Below, one piece after another: positions 3,861 through 26,671 of a stretch of 64,000 nt of DNA. How positions within the stretch are numbered: position 1 is the first letter of the stretch; every line of letters starts with the position of its first letter. The position numbers and the translations under genes were made by a program. Below the pieces are notes generated by a model that was not told the DNA's origin, did no database searches, and worked only from the letters and a program-made list of their open reading frames with translations. Source of the stretch: Minisyncoccota bacterium (lineage in GTDB: Bacteria; Patescibacteriota; Minisyncoccia; Phycocordibacterales; JBAYGS01); NCBI GenBank assembly GCA_041666545.1, contig JBAYGS010000002.1, positions 6,065 through 70,064 on the forward strand, given 5' to 3'.

Positions 3861-4062
3861 GCCACCGTCTGCGGTTCGTCGCGTTATCCACAAGGGTGTT
3901 CTCTCTAGCTGACAAGCTTGCTATAATACTGAATGTGGAATAAAACCTCGATTGCGAGGCTAAACAGGTCGAAGTTCCCTGAAATCTGCGCGAATTTCAG
4001 ATTTTCGCAGTTGTCAGGGAAAGTAATTATTAAAAATAGTTAGTTATTAATTAATTTAAATT

Positions 4063-22301: not shown

Positions 22302-23177
22302 ATGCCTATGGAAGCTAAAAATCAAAAATTGGTGGAATTGGTGGCGGAAATGCAGGCGCCCGATTTTTGGGCGGACAAAAATCGGGCGCAGTCAGTCATC
22401 AAGGAAATTGCCGATTTAAAAGCTGACTTGGCTGGTGAAGGGAAGTATGACAAGGGTGACGCGATTATGACGATTCTTTCCGGCGCCGGTGGTGATGACG
22501 CTGAGGACTTCTCCAGGATTCTTTTTGAAATGTATCAGAAATATTTTGCTAAGCAGGGTTTCAGTTGTCGACTACTTCATGATAATGAAAATGACCATGG
22601 TGGTTATCGTAATCTAACCGTCGAAGTTTCAGGTAAGAATGTCTACGGTACTCTGAAAGGCGAATCAGGCGTTCATCGCTTAGTGAGGATTTCGCCATTT
22701 AACGCCAAACAACTTCGGCACACCTCTTTTTCAATGGTTGAGATAATCCCAAAATTTGAAAAGACTGCCGATGTGGTAATACCTGACGATGAGTTGAGAA
22801 TTGAATTTGCGCGCGCCGGCGGGGCAGGTGGTCAAAATGTGAATAAACGAGAGACGGCTGTTCGGATCGTGCATATCCCAACCAATCTCTCGGCCCATGT
22901 CTCAAGTGAGCGTTCGCAACACCAGAATCGCGAAAAAGCTATGGATATTTTGAAGGGTAAGATTTACAAAATGCGCGAGGACGAAAGGTTGGCCAAAGAA
23001 AAGGGAATGTATCTGTCTAAAACCACTTCGATTGAGTGGGGGAACCAAATTCGCTCCTACGTATTTCATCCCTACAAAATGGTTAAAGACCACCGCACTA
23101 ATGTCGAAACCGCGCAGATTGATAAGGTGTTAAACGGGGAGCTCGACGAGTTTATTTTAGCCGAACAGCAGTTATAG
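22302..23177 (+). CDS. prfB: Peptide chain release factor 2 (short N-terminus, no frameshift site)
   Basis: SPF tripeptide (RISPFNAKQ) and GGQ (RAGGAGGQNVNK). 291 aa. A terminator at 22244-22278 lies immediately upstream, leaving no room for a frame-0 leader. Confidence 0.85.
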   Translation: MPMEAKNQKLVELVAEMQAPDFWADKNRAQSVIKEIADLKADLAGEGKYDKGDAIMTILSGAGGDDAEDFSRILFEMYQKYFAKQGFSCRLLHDNENDHGGYRNLTVEVSGKNVYGTLKGESGVHRLVRISPFNAKQLRHTSFSMVEIIPKFEKTADVVIPDDELRIEFARAGGAGGQNVNKRETAVRIVHIPTNLSAHVSSERSQHQNREKAMDILKGKIYKMREDERLAKEKGMYLSKTTSIEWGNQIRSYVFHPYKMVKDHRTNVETAQIDKVLNGELDEFILAEQQL

Positions 23178-23234: not shown

Positions 23235-23828
23235 ATGAAACAGGATATTATTTTAGGCTCGAGCTCATCCGGTAGGAAAAAAGTCCTTGCGGATTTGGGG
23301 TACAAGTTTTCTGTAATGAGCCCGGGTATAGATGAAAAGGCGATTCGCCACGATGATCCCAAGAAGCTGACTTCGCTACTCGCCAATGCCAAGGCCGACG
23401 CCTTGCTGGAAAGGATAAAAAGTCCGGCAATCCTCATCACCTCAGATCAGGTGGTTGTCTGTAATGGTCAGATTTTAGAAAAACCAGAAAGCCCCGCCCA
23501 GGCTAAGGATTTCCTAAGTCGTTATGTAGACCATCCGGCCGAGACGACTGCTACCGTGGTCGTGACTGATACGAAATCTGGCAAGAGATTCGAAGGGTTG
23601 GATATCGCGAAAGTATTTTTTGACCGGATTCCAGATGAGCTTGTTGACCGACTTATCGAGAAAGGGGAAATCATGGAAATGTCGGGCGCCTTTATGATTG
23701 ACGAGCCTTTATTACAAAAATACATCAAGGAAGTCCAAGGTGAACCTGAAAGCGTGTTCGGTCTACCTAAACAACTGACAAAGCGTCTTCTCGACATGGC
23801 CCAGGTCGCATCTGTAAAAGTGGCCTAA
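23235..23828 (+). CDS. maf: Maf-like nucleoside triphosphate pyrophosphatase
   Basis: IILGSSSSGRKKVLADLG N-terminal Maf signature. 197 aa. Confidence 0.75.
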   Translation: MKQDIILGSSSSGRKKVLADLGYKFSVMSPGIDEKAIRHDDPKKLTSLLANAKADALLERIKSPAILITSDQVVVCNGQILEKPESPAQAKDFLSRYVDHPAETTATVVVTDTKSGKRFEGLDIAKVFFDRIPDELVDRLIEKGEIMEMSGAFMIDEPLLQKYIKEVQGEPESVFGLPKQLTKRLLDMAQVASVKVA

Positions 23829-23893
23829 CGGGGCCATTTTTTTGGTATCGAGCAGAAAGAAATCGTTTTTGGGCTTGACTTTCTAATTGAATA

Positions 23894-24036
23894 TGCTATC
23901 ATAGGGCTTTAGACAAGTCGGAGCCAAAAAACACCGGCGAATCGGCTTGTAAAATCTCCAGCACCTTGAAAAAGGGTGCGCATCCAATCTTCAAGACTTT
24001 AATGAGGCCTGAGCACCCCGCTCAGGCCTTTTGTGT
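23894..24036 (+). promoter_or_regulatory. Candidate cis-regulatory leader RNA (riboswitch/attenuator-like), copy 1: -10 box, conserved hairpins, intrinsic terminator
   Basis: TGCTATCAT (-10, 23894-23902). ACAAGUCGG...CGGCUUGU long stem, UAAAAUC linker, AGCACC-UUGAAAAAG-GGUGC hairpin. Terminator AGGCCUGAGC-ACCCC-GCUCAGGCCUUUUGU (24005-24036). The ORF starts at 24090. Confidence 0.55.
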
Positions 24037-24089
24037 ACCCAAACCTAAAACCCAAACCCGCTCGGCAACGAGCATAACCGAAAAAACAT

Positions 24090-24371
24090 ATGGGCCTCGA
24101 AAGACTAGACCGTTGGTGTGATCAGTTGGAAATGAAGAAGCAATACTTTGGGCAAAGAAAGAATTGGGCTCGGAGTTTCGCCGAACAAAACGGACTTGCT
24201 AATCCCGGGGATAGTGCAGTCGGAATGTTCTACGCGCGTACCTATCAGGTGATAATAGGTCCACGTGGCGGTCTGAATATCCACGGACAACTACCTTGGC
24301 AGGATTCGAACGGTTGGCGCTGGTTTGAGAAGACGCCTAAGCAGCGCAAGAGGGCTGAAAGGGAGGAATAG
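24090..24371 (+). CDS. Hypothetical protein
   Basis: 93 aa ORF downstream of leader element copy 1. A terminator-like hairpin lies at 24376-24408. Confidence 0.4.
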   Translation: MGLERLDRWCDQLEMKKQYFGQRKNWARSFAEQNGLANPGDSAVGMFYARTYQVIIGPRGGLNIHGQLPWQDSNGWRWFEKTPKQRKRAEREE

Positions 24372-24493
24372 AAAATAGGGGTTCGGTTCGATCCCGAACC
24401 CCTTTCTGTCCCGAGATGAGTGTCTCGGCTGATGAGCTCAAAAGAGCGAAACAGAAGTTCTTCGACAACAAAATAAAATGAAGGGAAAAACTG

Positions 24494-24778
24494 ATGAACC
24501 AAATCATAACAGTATTGATTAATCACACCTCGGCCTGTTCCAAAGCACGACAACTTCTCGAGGATCTTCTTAAAATTTTACCCAAGGATAGTACCACAAT
24601 ACGTGAACAGCTAGAGGCTTGTCTGCCGGAACTCAAAGTTAAAGAAGTAGCTGAAGAAAAATGGCAAGCAGAACTTCGAATGGAACAGGTACAGCGAGCA
24701 CACGAGGAGGAGCATTTTAAGTTTAAGCACGGCCGCGAATGGGACCCGCGGGATGACCCAGACTGGAGGCCTTACTAA
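24494..24778 (+). CDS. Hypothetical protein
   Basis: 94 aa, acidic C-terminus. Confidence 0.4.
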   Translation: MNQIITVLINHTSACSKARQLLEDLLKILPKDSTTIREQLEACLPELKVKEVAEEKWQAELRMEQVQRAHEEEHFKFKHGREWDPRDDPDWRPY

Positions 24779-24851
24779 AATCTAGTCACACTGGCAAACG
24801 AAAGTTTGCCAGTCTTATCTTTTGGGCAGATAGTGGGGTATAATTTAAAAT

Positions 24852-25364
24852 ATGATTTTAACCCGCGACATAATTTTAAAAGAGATTGAAAAAGGAAATA
24901 TTAAAATTTCAGCTTTTGAGGAAAAACTTTTGGGACCAGCCTCTTATGATTTGGCTTTGGGGAAAAGCTTGAGAATTTTTACTAAACAAAAAGAAGCTTA
25001 TCCGGTTCACGACGATGCCGATTTCGCTCACATTACAGAATTGATTGAGATGACTGAAGCTGGTTATACGATGCAACCTGGGGAAGCGGTGCTCGGGGTG
25101 ACTGAGGAGAAAATTACTCTGGCACCCAACATTGCCGGCTGGCTGGAAGGGCGAAGTCGTTTTGCCCGAGTAGGTCTTATGGTTCATATTTCTTCACCAT
25201 TTATGCAACCTGGGATTGATAGTCATCAGGTTTTAGAGATTGCTAACTTGGGACCGACTCCGCTTACGATTTTTCCCGGCACCAAAATTTGCCAATTTAT
25301 TTTTGAATATTGCGAAGGCGGGGCAGAATATAAAGGGAAATTTTCCGGACAAACGACTCCTTGA
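24852..25364 (+). CDS. dcd: dCTP deaminase (dUTPase fold)
   Basis: MILTRDIILKEIEKGNIKISAFEEKLLGPASYDLALG matches the Dcd N-terminus. -10 GGGTATAAT lies 9 nt before the ATG. Confidence 0.85.
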   Translation: MILTRDIILKEIEKGNIKISAFEEKLLGPASYDLALGKSLRIFTKQKEAYPVHDDADFAHITELIEMTEAGYTMQPGEAVLGVTEEKITLAPNIAGWLEGRSRFARVGLMVHISSPFMQPGIDSHQVLEIANLGPTPLTIFPGTKICQFIFEYCEGGAEYKGKFSGQTTP

Positions 25365-25380
25365 CAAGTGGTCGTTAATT

Positions 25381-25494
25381 TGCTATACTTCTGCCAGTCA
25401 AGTCGGAACCAGGCAATACCGGCAAACCGGCTTGTAAAATCGAAAGCACCTTGAAATGGTGAATTCGGATCGGCAACAAGCCGGTCTTTTTTGT
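25381..25494 (+). promoter_or_regulatory. Candidate cis-regulatory leader RNA, copy 2 (same architecture as 23894-24036)
   Basis: TGCTATACT (-10, 25381-25389). CAAGUCGG...CCGGCUUG stem, UAAAAUC, AGCACC-UUGAAAU-GGUG hairpin. Terminator GAUCGGC-AACAA-GCCGGUC-UUUUUU (25468-25494). The ORF starts at 25532. Confidence 0.55.
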
Positions 25495-25531
25495 CCCTGA
25501 ACCTAAACCTGAAGAAAGGAAATCCGAAAGT

Positions 25532-26671
25532 ATGACGATAAACCTAGCGCAGTCGATTCTTGGACTCGAGGAAGGTATCACGGTGATTGTGATTACCGGT
25601 GGTCCCTGCAGTGGCAAGACCACCGGCCTGTCATACCTCAAACAGAAGCTTACTGACCGGGGTTACAAAGTTCTGGTTGTTCCGGAGACGGCGACAAAAT
25701 TAATCAGTGGCGGTATGACCCCGGGTGAGTTATCCTGGCCGGAATTTCAGGAGCACATCCTCTTGGACACGATGGATCAGGAGGCACGATTCTTCCAGAT
25801 TGCCAGTTCCTATCTCAGGCAAGGCAAGAAAGTGGTGGTGCTCTGTGACCGAGGGATGATGGATGGCGAGGCTTATGTCGGCGAGAAAACTTTTGGGCAG
25901 ATGCTTGAACGATTCAGTCTGGATCGGCTCGCGGTTCGCGACGGTCGCTATCACGCGGTGATGCACTTGCAGACGGCAGCAATCGGGGCCGAGCAGTTCT
26001 ACACCCTCGAAAACAATGCCGCAAGGATCGAAACTCCGGCGCAGGCGAGAAAGCTGGACGCAAAGACGCTTCAGGCCTGGCAAGGGCATGCTCATCCACG
26101 GGTGATTGATAACAGCACGGATTTCGAGGGCAAAATGAAAAGATTGCTCGCGGAAGTCTGCGGAGTGCTTGGCGACCCGGTACCGATTGAAAAGGAAGAC
26201 AAATTCCTAATTAAACCGGTCGACCTCAAGAAGTTCAAAGTCTCTTGGACCGAGAGTCAGATTGTCCAAGATTACTTGGTGTCTCCGGCCGAGGGTGAGG
26301 AAAGACGAGTTCGGGCCCGTGGTGATGGTAAAAACTTCTCCTACTACTACACGGTCAAGCGCGAGCTTCGGCCTGGTGAGCGAGTTGAACAGGAGAAAAT
26401 GATCACCGAGCGGGAGTACCAATCTCTGCTTACTCTCAAGGACCCGAAGATGCAGACGATTCGGAAACGGCGGATCTGTTTCTTCTGGAAAAACCAATTC
26501 TTCGAAGTCGACATCTTCGAAGGGTCGGCTAGGGGTCTCTATTTGATGGAGGCCGAAAGAACCGACCGGGCGCCGGAATTGAAGCTGCCACCCTTCATCA
26601 AGGTGGTCAAGAACGTCACGGGGGACAAGCGGTATTCCAACAAGCGGATTGCTGCCGGCTCCGTGAACTGA
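25532..26671 (+). CDS. P-loop NTPase (nucleoside/nucleotide kinase-like) fused to a C-terminal CYTH (triphosphate tunnel) domain
   Basis: Walker A GGPCSGKTTG at the N-terminus. The C-terminal half begins EKEDKFLIKP with conserved acidic and basic residues typical of CYTH. GC-rich. Confidence 0.6.
   Translation: MTINLAQSILGLEEGITVIVITGGPCSGKTTGLSYLKQKLTDRGYKVLVVPETATKLISGGMTPGELSWPEFQEHILLDTMDQEARFFQIASSYLRQGKKVVVLCDRGMMDGEAYVGEKTFGQMLERFSLDRLAVRDGRYHAVMHLQTAAIGAEQFYTLENNAARIETPAQARKLDAKTLQAWQGHAHPRVIDNSTDFEGKMKRLLAEVCGVLGDPVPIEKEDKFLIKPVDLKKFKVSWTESQIVQDYLVSPAEGEERRVRARGDGKNFSYYYTVKRELRPGERVEQEKMITEREYQSLLTLKDPKMQTIRKRRICFFWKNQFFEVDIFEGSARGLYLMEAERTDRAPELKLPPFIKVVKNVTGDKRYSNKRIAAGSVN

Follow-up and report, generated by a model that had tools for sequence, protein, structure and literature searches.

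An uncatalogued, lineage-restricted leader RNA in Patescibacteria: a candidate cis-regulatory element upstream of AAA_28-CYTH genes

Small riboswitches built from two hairpins, such as the guanidine-II (mini-ykkC) and NAD+-I (nadA) classes, reside in the 5' untranslated region (5' UTR) and combine a compact core and conserved loops or junctions with covarying stems; in some members a terminator follows the core, and the downstream platforms are variable. These features are shared by a leader RNA that occurs twice, as copy 1 and copy 2, in a 64,000-nucleotide stretch of a Minisyncoccota genome (contig JBAYGS010000002.1; hereafter the window), where it consists of a hairpin (P1), a single-stranded junction, a second hairpin (P2), and a terminator hairpin (P3), and where copy 2 precedes a gene for an AAA_28-CYTH fusion protein. 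However, the leader differs from these riboswitches in that it has no Rfam match, its loops and junction are unrelated to theirs, no competition between terminator and antiterminator is seen, no ligand is known, and the associated gene family is of unassigned function.

Antitermination RNAs, including putL and putR of HK022, the Bacillus EAR element, LoaP leader hairpins, and Nus boxA/boxB, offer a further comparison, since here too an RNA of about 70 nt with two hairpins follows a promoter and lies upstream of terminators, occurs in two promoter-linked copies per genome, and needs no alternative pairing. Nevertheless, the leader has no Rfam similarity to them and is not found in phage, and some of its members lack a downstream terminator. 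Autoregulatory leaders (ribosomal-protein leaders, the thrS operator, PyrR attenuators) resemble it in being tied to one gene family across contexts and in carrying their recognition elements in loops and single strands, but no RNA binding is known or predicted for AAA_28-CYTH proteins, and neither target mimicry nor a PyrR-type anti-antiterminator is present. Like the 5' stabiliser hairpins of ompA, aprE, and ermC, P1 is separated from the inferred 5' end by no more than a few nucleotides; unlike them, the leader is conserved beyond the needs of a stabiliser and contains additional conserved elements.

The leader is a real, previously uncatalogued, lineage-restricted structured RNA, which belongs broadly with cis-regulatory leaders and riboswitch candidates. 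We consider it rather probable that its copies represent a family of cis-acting, factor-sensing 5' leader RNAs restricted to Paceibacterota-like Patescibacteria of the candidate phyla radiation (CPR). An earlier note on this DNA had been unable to match the element to any riboswitch class, and this is borne out by the RNA families of Rfam 15. At gathering thresholds, the whole window gave four tRNAs only and 14 related loci gave tRNAs only, while at E<=10 no match overlapped either copy in the region 23800–25560 and no relevant match was obtained for the divergent leaders of two related loci, L125 and L031 (loci collected for comparison carry the prefix L). A known family is thereby ruled out at both settings for the window and its homologues. 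The literature on riboswitches of Patescibacteria or of CYTH genes and on the motif sequence yielded nothing relevant. A phage or plasmid origin was also rejected, as blastn against phage records (50,697) and plasmid records found no similar DNA and two pattern scans of viral contigs returned chance matches without P1.

Anatomy, selection and distribution of the leader

All features of both copies lie on the + strand. The promoter of copy 1 (23875–23902) has a -35 box TTGACT at 23875–23880, a 16-nt spacer, and the extended -10 box TGCTATCAT at 23894–23902; a promoter scan found 10 of 12 consensus matches, with the TG present. The RNA is predicted to start at A23911 or G23912, 2–3 nt 5' of P1. 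Supported by the minimum-free-energy fold and by covariation, P1 (23914–23949) pairs the strands CAAGUCGG and UCGGCUUG and is built from the base CAAGUC/GGCUUG, followed by GG/UC, the inner helix GCC/GGC, and the apical loop AAAAAACACC. The junction (23950–23960), comprising UAAAAUC at 23950–23956 and the spacer UCCA, is single-stranded. P2 (23961–23979) reads GCACC-UUGAAAAAG-GGUGC and is drawn as GCACC(UU)-GAAAA-(AG)GGUGC with the conserved UUGAAA. A linker (23980–24003) with the conserved block AAUCUUCAAGAC leads to P3, an intrinsic terminator at 24004–24036 with an 11-bp GC-rich stem, the loop ACCCC, and the tail UUUUGUGU; by sequence, UUCAAG of the linker (23990–23995) is complementary to CUUGAA of P2. 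The distal leader (24037–24089) contains a C/A-rich tract, the hairpin GCUCG-GCAA-CGAGC at 24060–24073, and AUAACCGAAAAAACAU before the ATG at 24090.

In copy 2, the promoter (25361–25389) has a -35 box TTGACA at 25361–25366, a 17-nt spacer, and the extended -10 box TGCTATACT at 25381–25389, with 11 of 12 consensus matches and the TG present in the scan; its -35 box overlaps the stop codon TGA of the preceding gene, dcd. The RNA is predicted to start at A25396. P1 (25399–25434) pairs CAAGUCGG with CCGGCUUG and has an apical loop ending in AAUACC, the junction (25435–25445) consists of UAAAAUC at 25435–25441 and the spacer GAAA, P2 (25446–25462) reads (G)CACC-UUGAAAU-GGUG, and the intrinsic terminator P3 (25467–25493) is GGAUCGGC-AACAA-GCCGGUCU followed by U6. 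The promoter and terminator sites of the two copies are the best of the region in the respective scans, and each copy folds into exactly three hairpins as its minimum-free-energy structure (z = -4.8 for copy 1 and -3.5 for copy 2, versus shuffles).

The earlier description, which gave each copy its own promoter, a long stem, UAAAAUC, a second hairpin, and a terminator, thus holds for every element. The similarity that it put at about 75% for the core is 73% over the aligned leaders, and the terminators, placed by it about 40–55 nt before a reading frame, lie 54 nt (copy 1) and 39 nt (copy 2, before the ATG at 25532) upstream. The conserved ACCGGC that it singled out is present, but it is a composite, in which the last bases of the apical loop of P1 (AAYACC) are joined to the 3' strand of its inner helix. 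It had also named an interpretation that would undo its proposal, namely that the terminators are simply the 3' ends of maf and dcd. For maf this does not hold, since the gene has its own terminator at 23821–23843 and the one at 24004 therefore does not mark its 3' end; dcd, on the other hand, has no terminator of its own before the copy 2 promoter, so the copy 2 terminator may also end dcd transcripts. Transcripts reading through dcd would terminate there, with the motif forming part of their 3' UTR.

Comparison with locus L024, in which the gene order is the same as in the window, provides a measure of selection. The dcd genes share 95% protein identity and 88% DNA identity, with third codon positions at 67%. 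Against this background, the copy 1 RNA is identical at 124 of 126 positions (98%) over its length from the inferred start site through the terminator, with 27 of 27 positions of the terminator hairpin and 100% of P3 unchanged, whereas 7 of 16 positions of the promoter spacer differ and the sequence 3' of the terminator is unrelated. This contrast with the third codon positions of dcd indicates that the whole short copy 1 transcript, and not the core alone, is under strong constraint. Copy 2 is identical at 89 of 100 positions, with the terminator stem kept and differences in its loop and adjoining bases. On these sequence comparisons, the RNAs of both copies are under purifying selection.

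Related loci were collected via the AAA_28-CYTH protein, and covariance models were built from 8 hand-aligned copies (model 1) and from 12 confident matches (model 2). Over 650 kb of loci, model 2 recovered 12 strong copies (51–81 bits) and one weak copy, with nothing else above 19 bits. Two copies are those of the window (81 and 74 bits, E about 1e-17 and 1e-15), two lie in L024 (L024a and L024b), and one each lies in L026, L141, L125, L128, L144, L123, L031, L145, and L027; the L027 copy is the weak match (21.5 bits, E 0.026), found in the expected position. In a search of the 64-kb window without filters, all other sites stayed at or below 9 bits. All 13 copies are located between a promoter and a start codon, and 11 of them, including 10 of the 11 outside the window, stand directly 5' of AAA_28-CYTH orthologues, while the remaining two precede unrelated small open reading frames (ORFs). 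The neighbours of the orthologues vary from contig to contig (the ribosomal-protein genes rpmA and rplB, fur, the PRPP synthetase gene prs, CTP synthase, and others), which implies that the motif travels with the AAA_28-CYTH gene. It was not found at Clostridia-type AAA_28-CYTH orthologues, which make up most of the 80 loci.

Every copy has a promoter of the form TTGACA...TGCTAnnnT that ends 9–12 nt before the CAAG of P1, and given this constant position the RNA should begin at a conserved AG, 2–5 nt before P1. The base of P1 is the invariant CAAG(U/C)C/GGCUUG, with bulges present in the hairpin and a U.G wobble conserved in the base of 9 of 13 copies; together with G.U pairs in P1, this wobble argues for RNA function on the + strand. 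The middle and inner helices vary yet stay complementary (GCC/GGC, CGC/GCG, CGG/CCG, CCC/GGG, CUACG/CGUAG, CUGC-GUC/GAC-GCAG, UCGA/UCGA, and UAUAG/CUAUA). In a hand-curated alignment, which leans towards structure, 98% of P1 cells are paired, compared with 74% in shuffled and 12–42% in slid controls, and 7 of 15 pairs show changes on both sides; in the model-derived alignment, the values are 91% versus 76% and 22–36%, with both-side changes in 7 of 16 pairs. RNAalifold recovers P1 and the core of P2 independently. Hence the conservation and covariation among homologues, which the earlier note had proposed to look for, are found as compensatory changes in P1 across the 13-copy family.

Conservation is highest at about 30 nucleotides, which cluster in the junction, in the loops, and at the base of the helix. 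The apical loop of P1 measures 9–14 nt, with AAYACC as its 3' end in 11 of 13 copies, and UAAAA(U/C)C is kept in 12 of 13 and unpaired in all minimum-free-energy folds. P2 takes two forms: nine copies have GCACC...GGUG(C) with an invariant stem and UUGAAA at or near the loop, and L125, L128, and partly L027 have GGUC-A-UUGAA...UUCAA-GACC, in which UUGAA is paired. The block AAUCUUCAAGAC follows P2 in copy 1, L024a, L125, and L128, where its UUCAA can pair with UUGAA; such pairing is also possible in L027 and in no other member, and L141 has the block without the complementarity. Searches for loop-loop or pseudoknot partners of AAYACC, UAAAAUC, and UUGAAA gave only inconsistent complementarities of 3–5 nt without covariation, and this candidate was dropped. 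All leaders fold into independent hairpins, and their distal part is a C/A-rich, G-poor tract.

In addition, most leaders carry a small hairpin whose stem covaries and, between it and the start codon, the sequence UAAC(C)GAAAGGA. This arrangement is seen at 24060–24089 of the window, at about 3955–3990 of L125, at about 3965–3995 of L123, and also in L141, L128, L031, and L027, with the stems GCUCG/CGAGC, GCCC/GGGC, GCCCG/CGGGC, GCCCC/GGGGC, and GUCCU/AGGAC. It is a second conserved module of the leader and possibly a translation or Rho-related element.

The genes behind the two leaders

The AAA_28-CYTH gene of the window spans 25532–26671 (+), and its product is 100% identical to a protein that NCBI assigns to Candidatus Paceibacterota. 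The N-terminal half of this product is a P-loop kinase-like AAA_28 domain (Pfam AAA_28 at 6e-24) with weak similarity to dTMP kinase, and the C-terminal half is a CYTH/TTM domain that is closest to the Nitrosomonas NE1496 protein (PDB 2FBL, matched at 1.7e-6), which we take to be the inorganic triphosphatase NeuTTM. No RNA-binding domain was recognised in the protein, and no obvious difference at the protein level separates motif-bearing from motif-lacking AAA_28-CYTH genes. A link to defence systems was considered and rejected, since PADLOC gave no convincing match and a mads_8 match to AAA_28-CYTH is marginal (E 0.00099). The gene is often found among genes of nucleotide metabolism, namely dcd, class II ribonucleotide reductase, phosphoribosyl pyrophosphate (PRPP) synthetase, CTP synthase, purA, purH, and uracil-DNA glycosylase. 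The leader of the L126 orthologue (3900–4000) lacks the motif yet has a strong promoter-proximal intrinsic terminator, GACUCGGGAAUGUCCCGAGUUUUUU, and leader terminators seem to recur at the AAA_28-CYTH gene even where the P1-P2 core is missing.

Copy 1 heads a different unit, which comprises in order ORF93, a hairpin, a hammerhead-like ribozyme, ORF94, and a terminator. ORF93 (24090–24371, +), the first gene 3' of copy 1, belongs to a family with four members among 5.8 billion proteins; its 62%-identical homologue at L143 2723–2989 again lies beside a hammerhead and an AAA_28-CYTH gene. In the leader of that homologue (L143 2620–2722), AAAUCGAAAGAAGCACCUU resembles the junction and the 5' half of P2 of copy 2, with no P1, and is probably a decayed copy of the motif. 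The hairpin at 24377–24403 (+) lies just after the ORF93 stop codon. It is followed, between ORF93 and ORF94, by a type III-like hammerhead ribozyme at 24403–24457 (+) with the core CUGAUGAG...CGAAAC and three complete helices, which scores 45.4 bits against RF00008 (gathering threshold 48.5, E 2.8e-8). Counterparts at L024 1530–1616 and L143 3584–3638 score 35 and 34 bits, with local E values from 3e-8 to 6e-6 across all three genomes, and in each genome the element lies between small ORFs beside the AAA_28-CYTH gene. Its position after the hairpin suggests a self-cleavage that would split a polycistronic transcript. The terminator at 24790–24823 (+), after ORF94, is the probable end of the unit.

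This terminator is followed by the TATAAT of dcd at 24839–24844, 7 nt before the ATG at 24852, and dcd appears to be leaderless or nearly so. At about 2230–2300 of L024, the terminator stem has compensatory changes and the TATAAT is kept. With a promoter element of its own and a terminator upstream, dcd is probably not under the control of the copy 1 leader, and the link between them is positional only. The earlier view that the downstream genes are nucleotide-related is therefore weakened for dCTP deaminase, which is insulated; as the genes actually downstream are AAA_28-CYTH and rare small ORFs, a nucleotide-metabolism regulon is only hinted at by the neighbourhood. The segment between the copy 1 leader and dcd is non-homologous in the two genomes (24037–24851 of the window, with ORF93 and ORF94, versus 990–2299 of L024, with ORFs of 84, 71, and 176 aa) and behaves like a cassette of small ORFs that can be exchanged while the leader ahead of it stays conserved. 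Further upstream, a peptide chain release factor gene (22302–23177, +) encodes 291 aa, with the Pfam PCRF match starting at profile position 87; its L024 counterpart is also about 297 aa, and the factor appears to be N-terminally shortened.

Possible modes of action

That the leader provides a docking site for some trans-acting factor is suggested by the conserved helix base, junction, and loops, by the fixed 5' position, and by the constant association with a single gene family. In the mechanism that we propose, each copy would be transcribed from its own strong promoter into an RNA that begins 2–5 nt before P1. P1, the UAAAAUC single strand, a 3–4-nt spacer, and the hairpin with UUGAAA would constitute a sensor core, to which a trans-acting ligand would dock, and the occupancy of the core would set how much transcript continues or survives past P3 into the distal leader and the coding region. 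In both window copies, P3 is a true intrinsic terminator. AAA_28-CYTH would be the main regulated gene, and the duplicate leader here heads the small-ORF/hammerhead unit. As no antiterminator is present, we expect a factor or the stability of the RNA, and not a simple toggle, to determine the output step. The ligand may be a small molecule, which would make the leader a true riboswitch, or it may be a protein or elongation-complex factor; the observations suit both kinds of leader equally well, and either assignment is tentative.

Several observations weigh against a factor-sensing leader family. The sample was gathered through the AAA_28-CYTH protein and is therefore biased towards that gene, and it covers about seven independent lineages. 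The sole unbiased DNA scan, of metagenomes, used the pattern CTTGTAAAAYCNNNAGCACCTT, which was too strict because AGCACCTT is not universal, and it recovered 15 chance matches and one known contig, that of L026. The motif was not found at the close AAA_28-CYTH orthologues L126, L028, L029, L143, and L146. Within the family, an unrelated hairpin tip takes the place of the AAYACC loop in L144 and L027, UUGAAA lies in the loop in nine members and inside the stem in L125, L128, and L027, and P2 shows no covariation within its type. P3 is a U-tract terminator in only 6 of 13 leaders (both window copies, L024a, L024b, L026, and L144); it is a hairpin without a U-tract in four (L141, L128, L031, and L145), of which L141 and L128 share their CCGGCG...GCCGG hairpin with the L026 and L144 terminators, and no third hairpin is present in L123, L125, and L027. 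Lastly, neither folds nor the duplex test described below revealed an alternative structure linking the core to P3.

It is possible, though doubtful, that the leader is a classic metabolite riboswitch acting by transcription attenuation, in which P1, the junction, and P2 form an aptamer for a nucleotide-related small molecule that toggles a terminator and an antiterminator. Both window copies do show the arrangement that the earlier note regarded as that of a classic attenuation riboswitch, with a promoter followed by a structured core, a terminator, and a gene, and the roughly 30 conserved nucleotides, the variation of expression platforms among homologues as in many riboswitch classes, the frequent setting of AAA_28-CYTH amid nucleotide-metabolism genes, and the lack of a match to any known class are in keeping with it. 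The switching logic and the conservation of the terminator are not. Pairing of the terminator 5' strand with the aptamer, as envisaged earlier, was examined in five terminator-bearing leaders by comparing the most stable duplex that each terminator strand forms with upstream RNA to the one that it forms with shuffled upstream sequence; no excess was found, the fraction of shuffles that did as well or better being 0.06–0.69, and folds of the nascent transcript left the terminator 5' strand free. The complementarity of CCGGCUUG and CAAGCCGG in copy 2 (8–9 nt, between the P1 3' strand and the terminator) is not kept in L024b, L026, or L144. In the seven leaders without a U-tract terminator, no evident or consistent pairing sequesters the Shine-Dalgarno sequence, dcd lies outside the regulated unit, and no known riboswitch that might hint at a ligand precedes the same protein family in 20 Clostridia-type loci of other phyla. 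Leader-peptide attenuation was also rejected, because the leaders contain no conserved short ORF with a ribosome-binding site. The missing antiterminator and the missing terminator in 7 of 13 leaders argue against a simple terminator/antiterminator riboswitch, although these negative tests would not, in our view, speak against a ligand-binding leader in general. Accepting P1-UAAAAUC-P2 as the aptamer of a new CPR riboswitch class, for a phosphorylated nucleotide-related metabolite tied to AAA_28-CYTH activity, is similarly speculative. No firmer is the proposal that the leader binds a protein or RNA polymerase, either for autoregulation by AAA_28-CYTH or another protein, or for processive antitermination, perhaps with Nus/NusG-like factors. 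Here, the transcript begins with the motif, immediately downstream of the promoter, two hairpins display conserved single-stranded and loop sequence, and UUGAAA is kept in loop and stem alike, which suits sequence-specific recognition. Two promoter-linked copies occur in one genome, as do putL and putR of HK022, and the tie to one protein family recalls autoregulatory leaders. Terminator-like hairpins follow copy 1 at 24004–24036, 24377–24403, and 24790–24823, and direct modification of the elongation complex would explain both these several hairpins and the absent alternative pairing; as an equally novel alternative, the leader may be a put-like RNA encoded on the chromosome that renders RNA polymerase resistant to terminators. 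By eye, CUUGUAAAAUC and CCUUGAAAA are loosely boxA-like (U/A-rich), but this likeness is weak, and neither the window nor the fetched loci contain an rRNA operon that would supply the lineage's own boxA. Furthermore, no put, EAR, or other antitermination element is matched, as far as these are included in Rfam 15, and AAA_28-CYTH proteins offer neither a recognised RNA-binding domain nor an obvious difference between bearers and non-bearers of the motif.

Three further explanations carry less weight. Copy 1 could be an independent 126-nt trans-acting small RNA, for example one whose CUUCAAG pairs with CUUGAA in the P2 loop of copy 2, with the similarity of the leaders due to common descent; its 124/126 identity to L024, including the 27/27 terminator hairpin, while spacer, upstream DNA, and downstream ORFs diverge or are unrelated, the strong 11-bp terminator, and the lack of a Shine-Dalgarno sequence before ORF93 would all fit. 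We regard this as unlikely, since the distal copy 1 leader keeps the hairpin and UAACCGAAA module of AAA_28-CYTH leaders, which argues that read-through mRNA matters, the homologues in L123 and L125 are plain 5' UTRs without a terminator, the ORF93 homologue of L143 has a degenerate motif remnant in its own leader, and target complementarity was examined over 6 nt only. Even less credible is a passive 5'-terminal stabiliser or processing element without sensing, in which the A/U-rich strand would be an RNase site: P1 does lie 2–5 nt after the inferred start in every member, and UAAAAUC is an unpaired A/U-rich stretch flanked by two hairpins, but such a role needs no invariant helix base, 7-nt junction, conserved loops, or second hairpin in lineages whose synonymous sites are about two-thirds identical. 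Finally, an operator palindrome or a promoter-region duplication that acts as DNA, with no RNA function, seems very improbable. CAAGTC...GGCTTG is an imperfect inverted repeat beside the promoter, and transcription-factor genes (TrmB, Fur) occur near some loci; however, the inner helices change sequence while keeping complementarity, the G.U and U.G pairs are mismatches in DNA, and the conservation spans the start site to the terminator rather than the promoter spacer.

The genomes of Patescibacteria are very small, few of their regulators are known, and to our knowledge almost no cis-regulatory RNAs have been described in them. The leader represents a tractable entry to gene regulation in these bacteria and could give a compact new regulatory part, while the copy 1 unit is unusual in combining the leader with several terminators, small ORFs that are interchangeable, and a hammerhead ribozyme. 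Should the RNA turn out to be a metabolite binder, it would supply a clue to the substrate of AAA_28-CYTH; as a new riboswitch class, it would be among the very few metabolite sensors in reduced, host-dependent bacteria and would offer a handle on the function of the enzyme.

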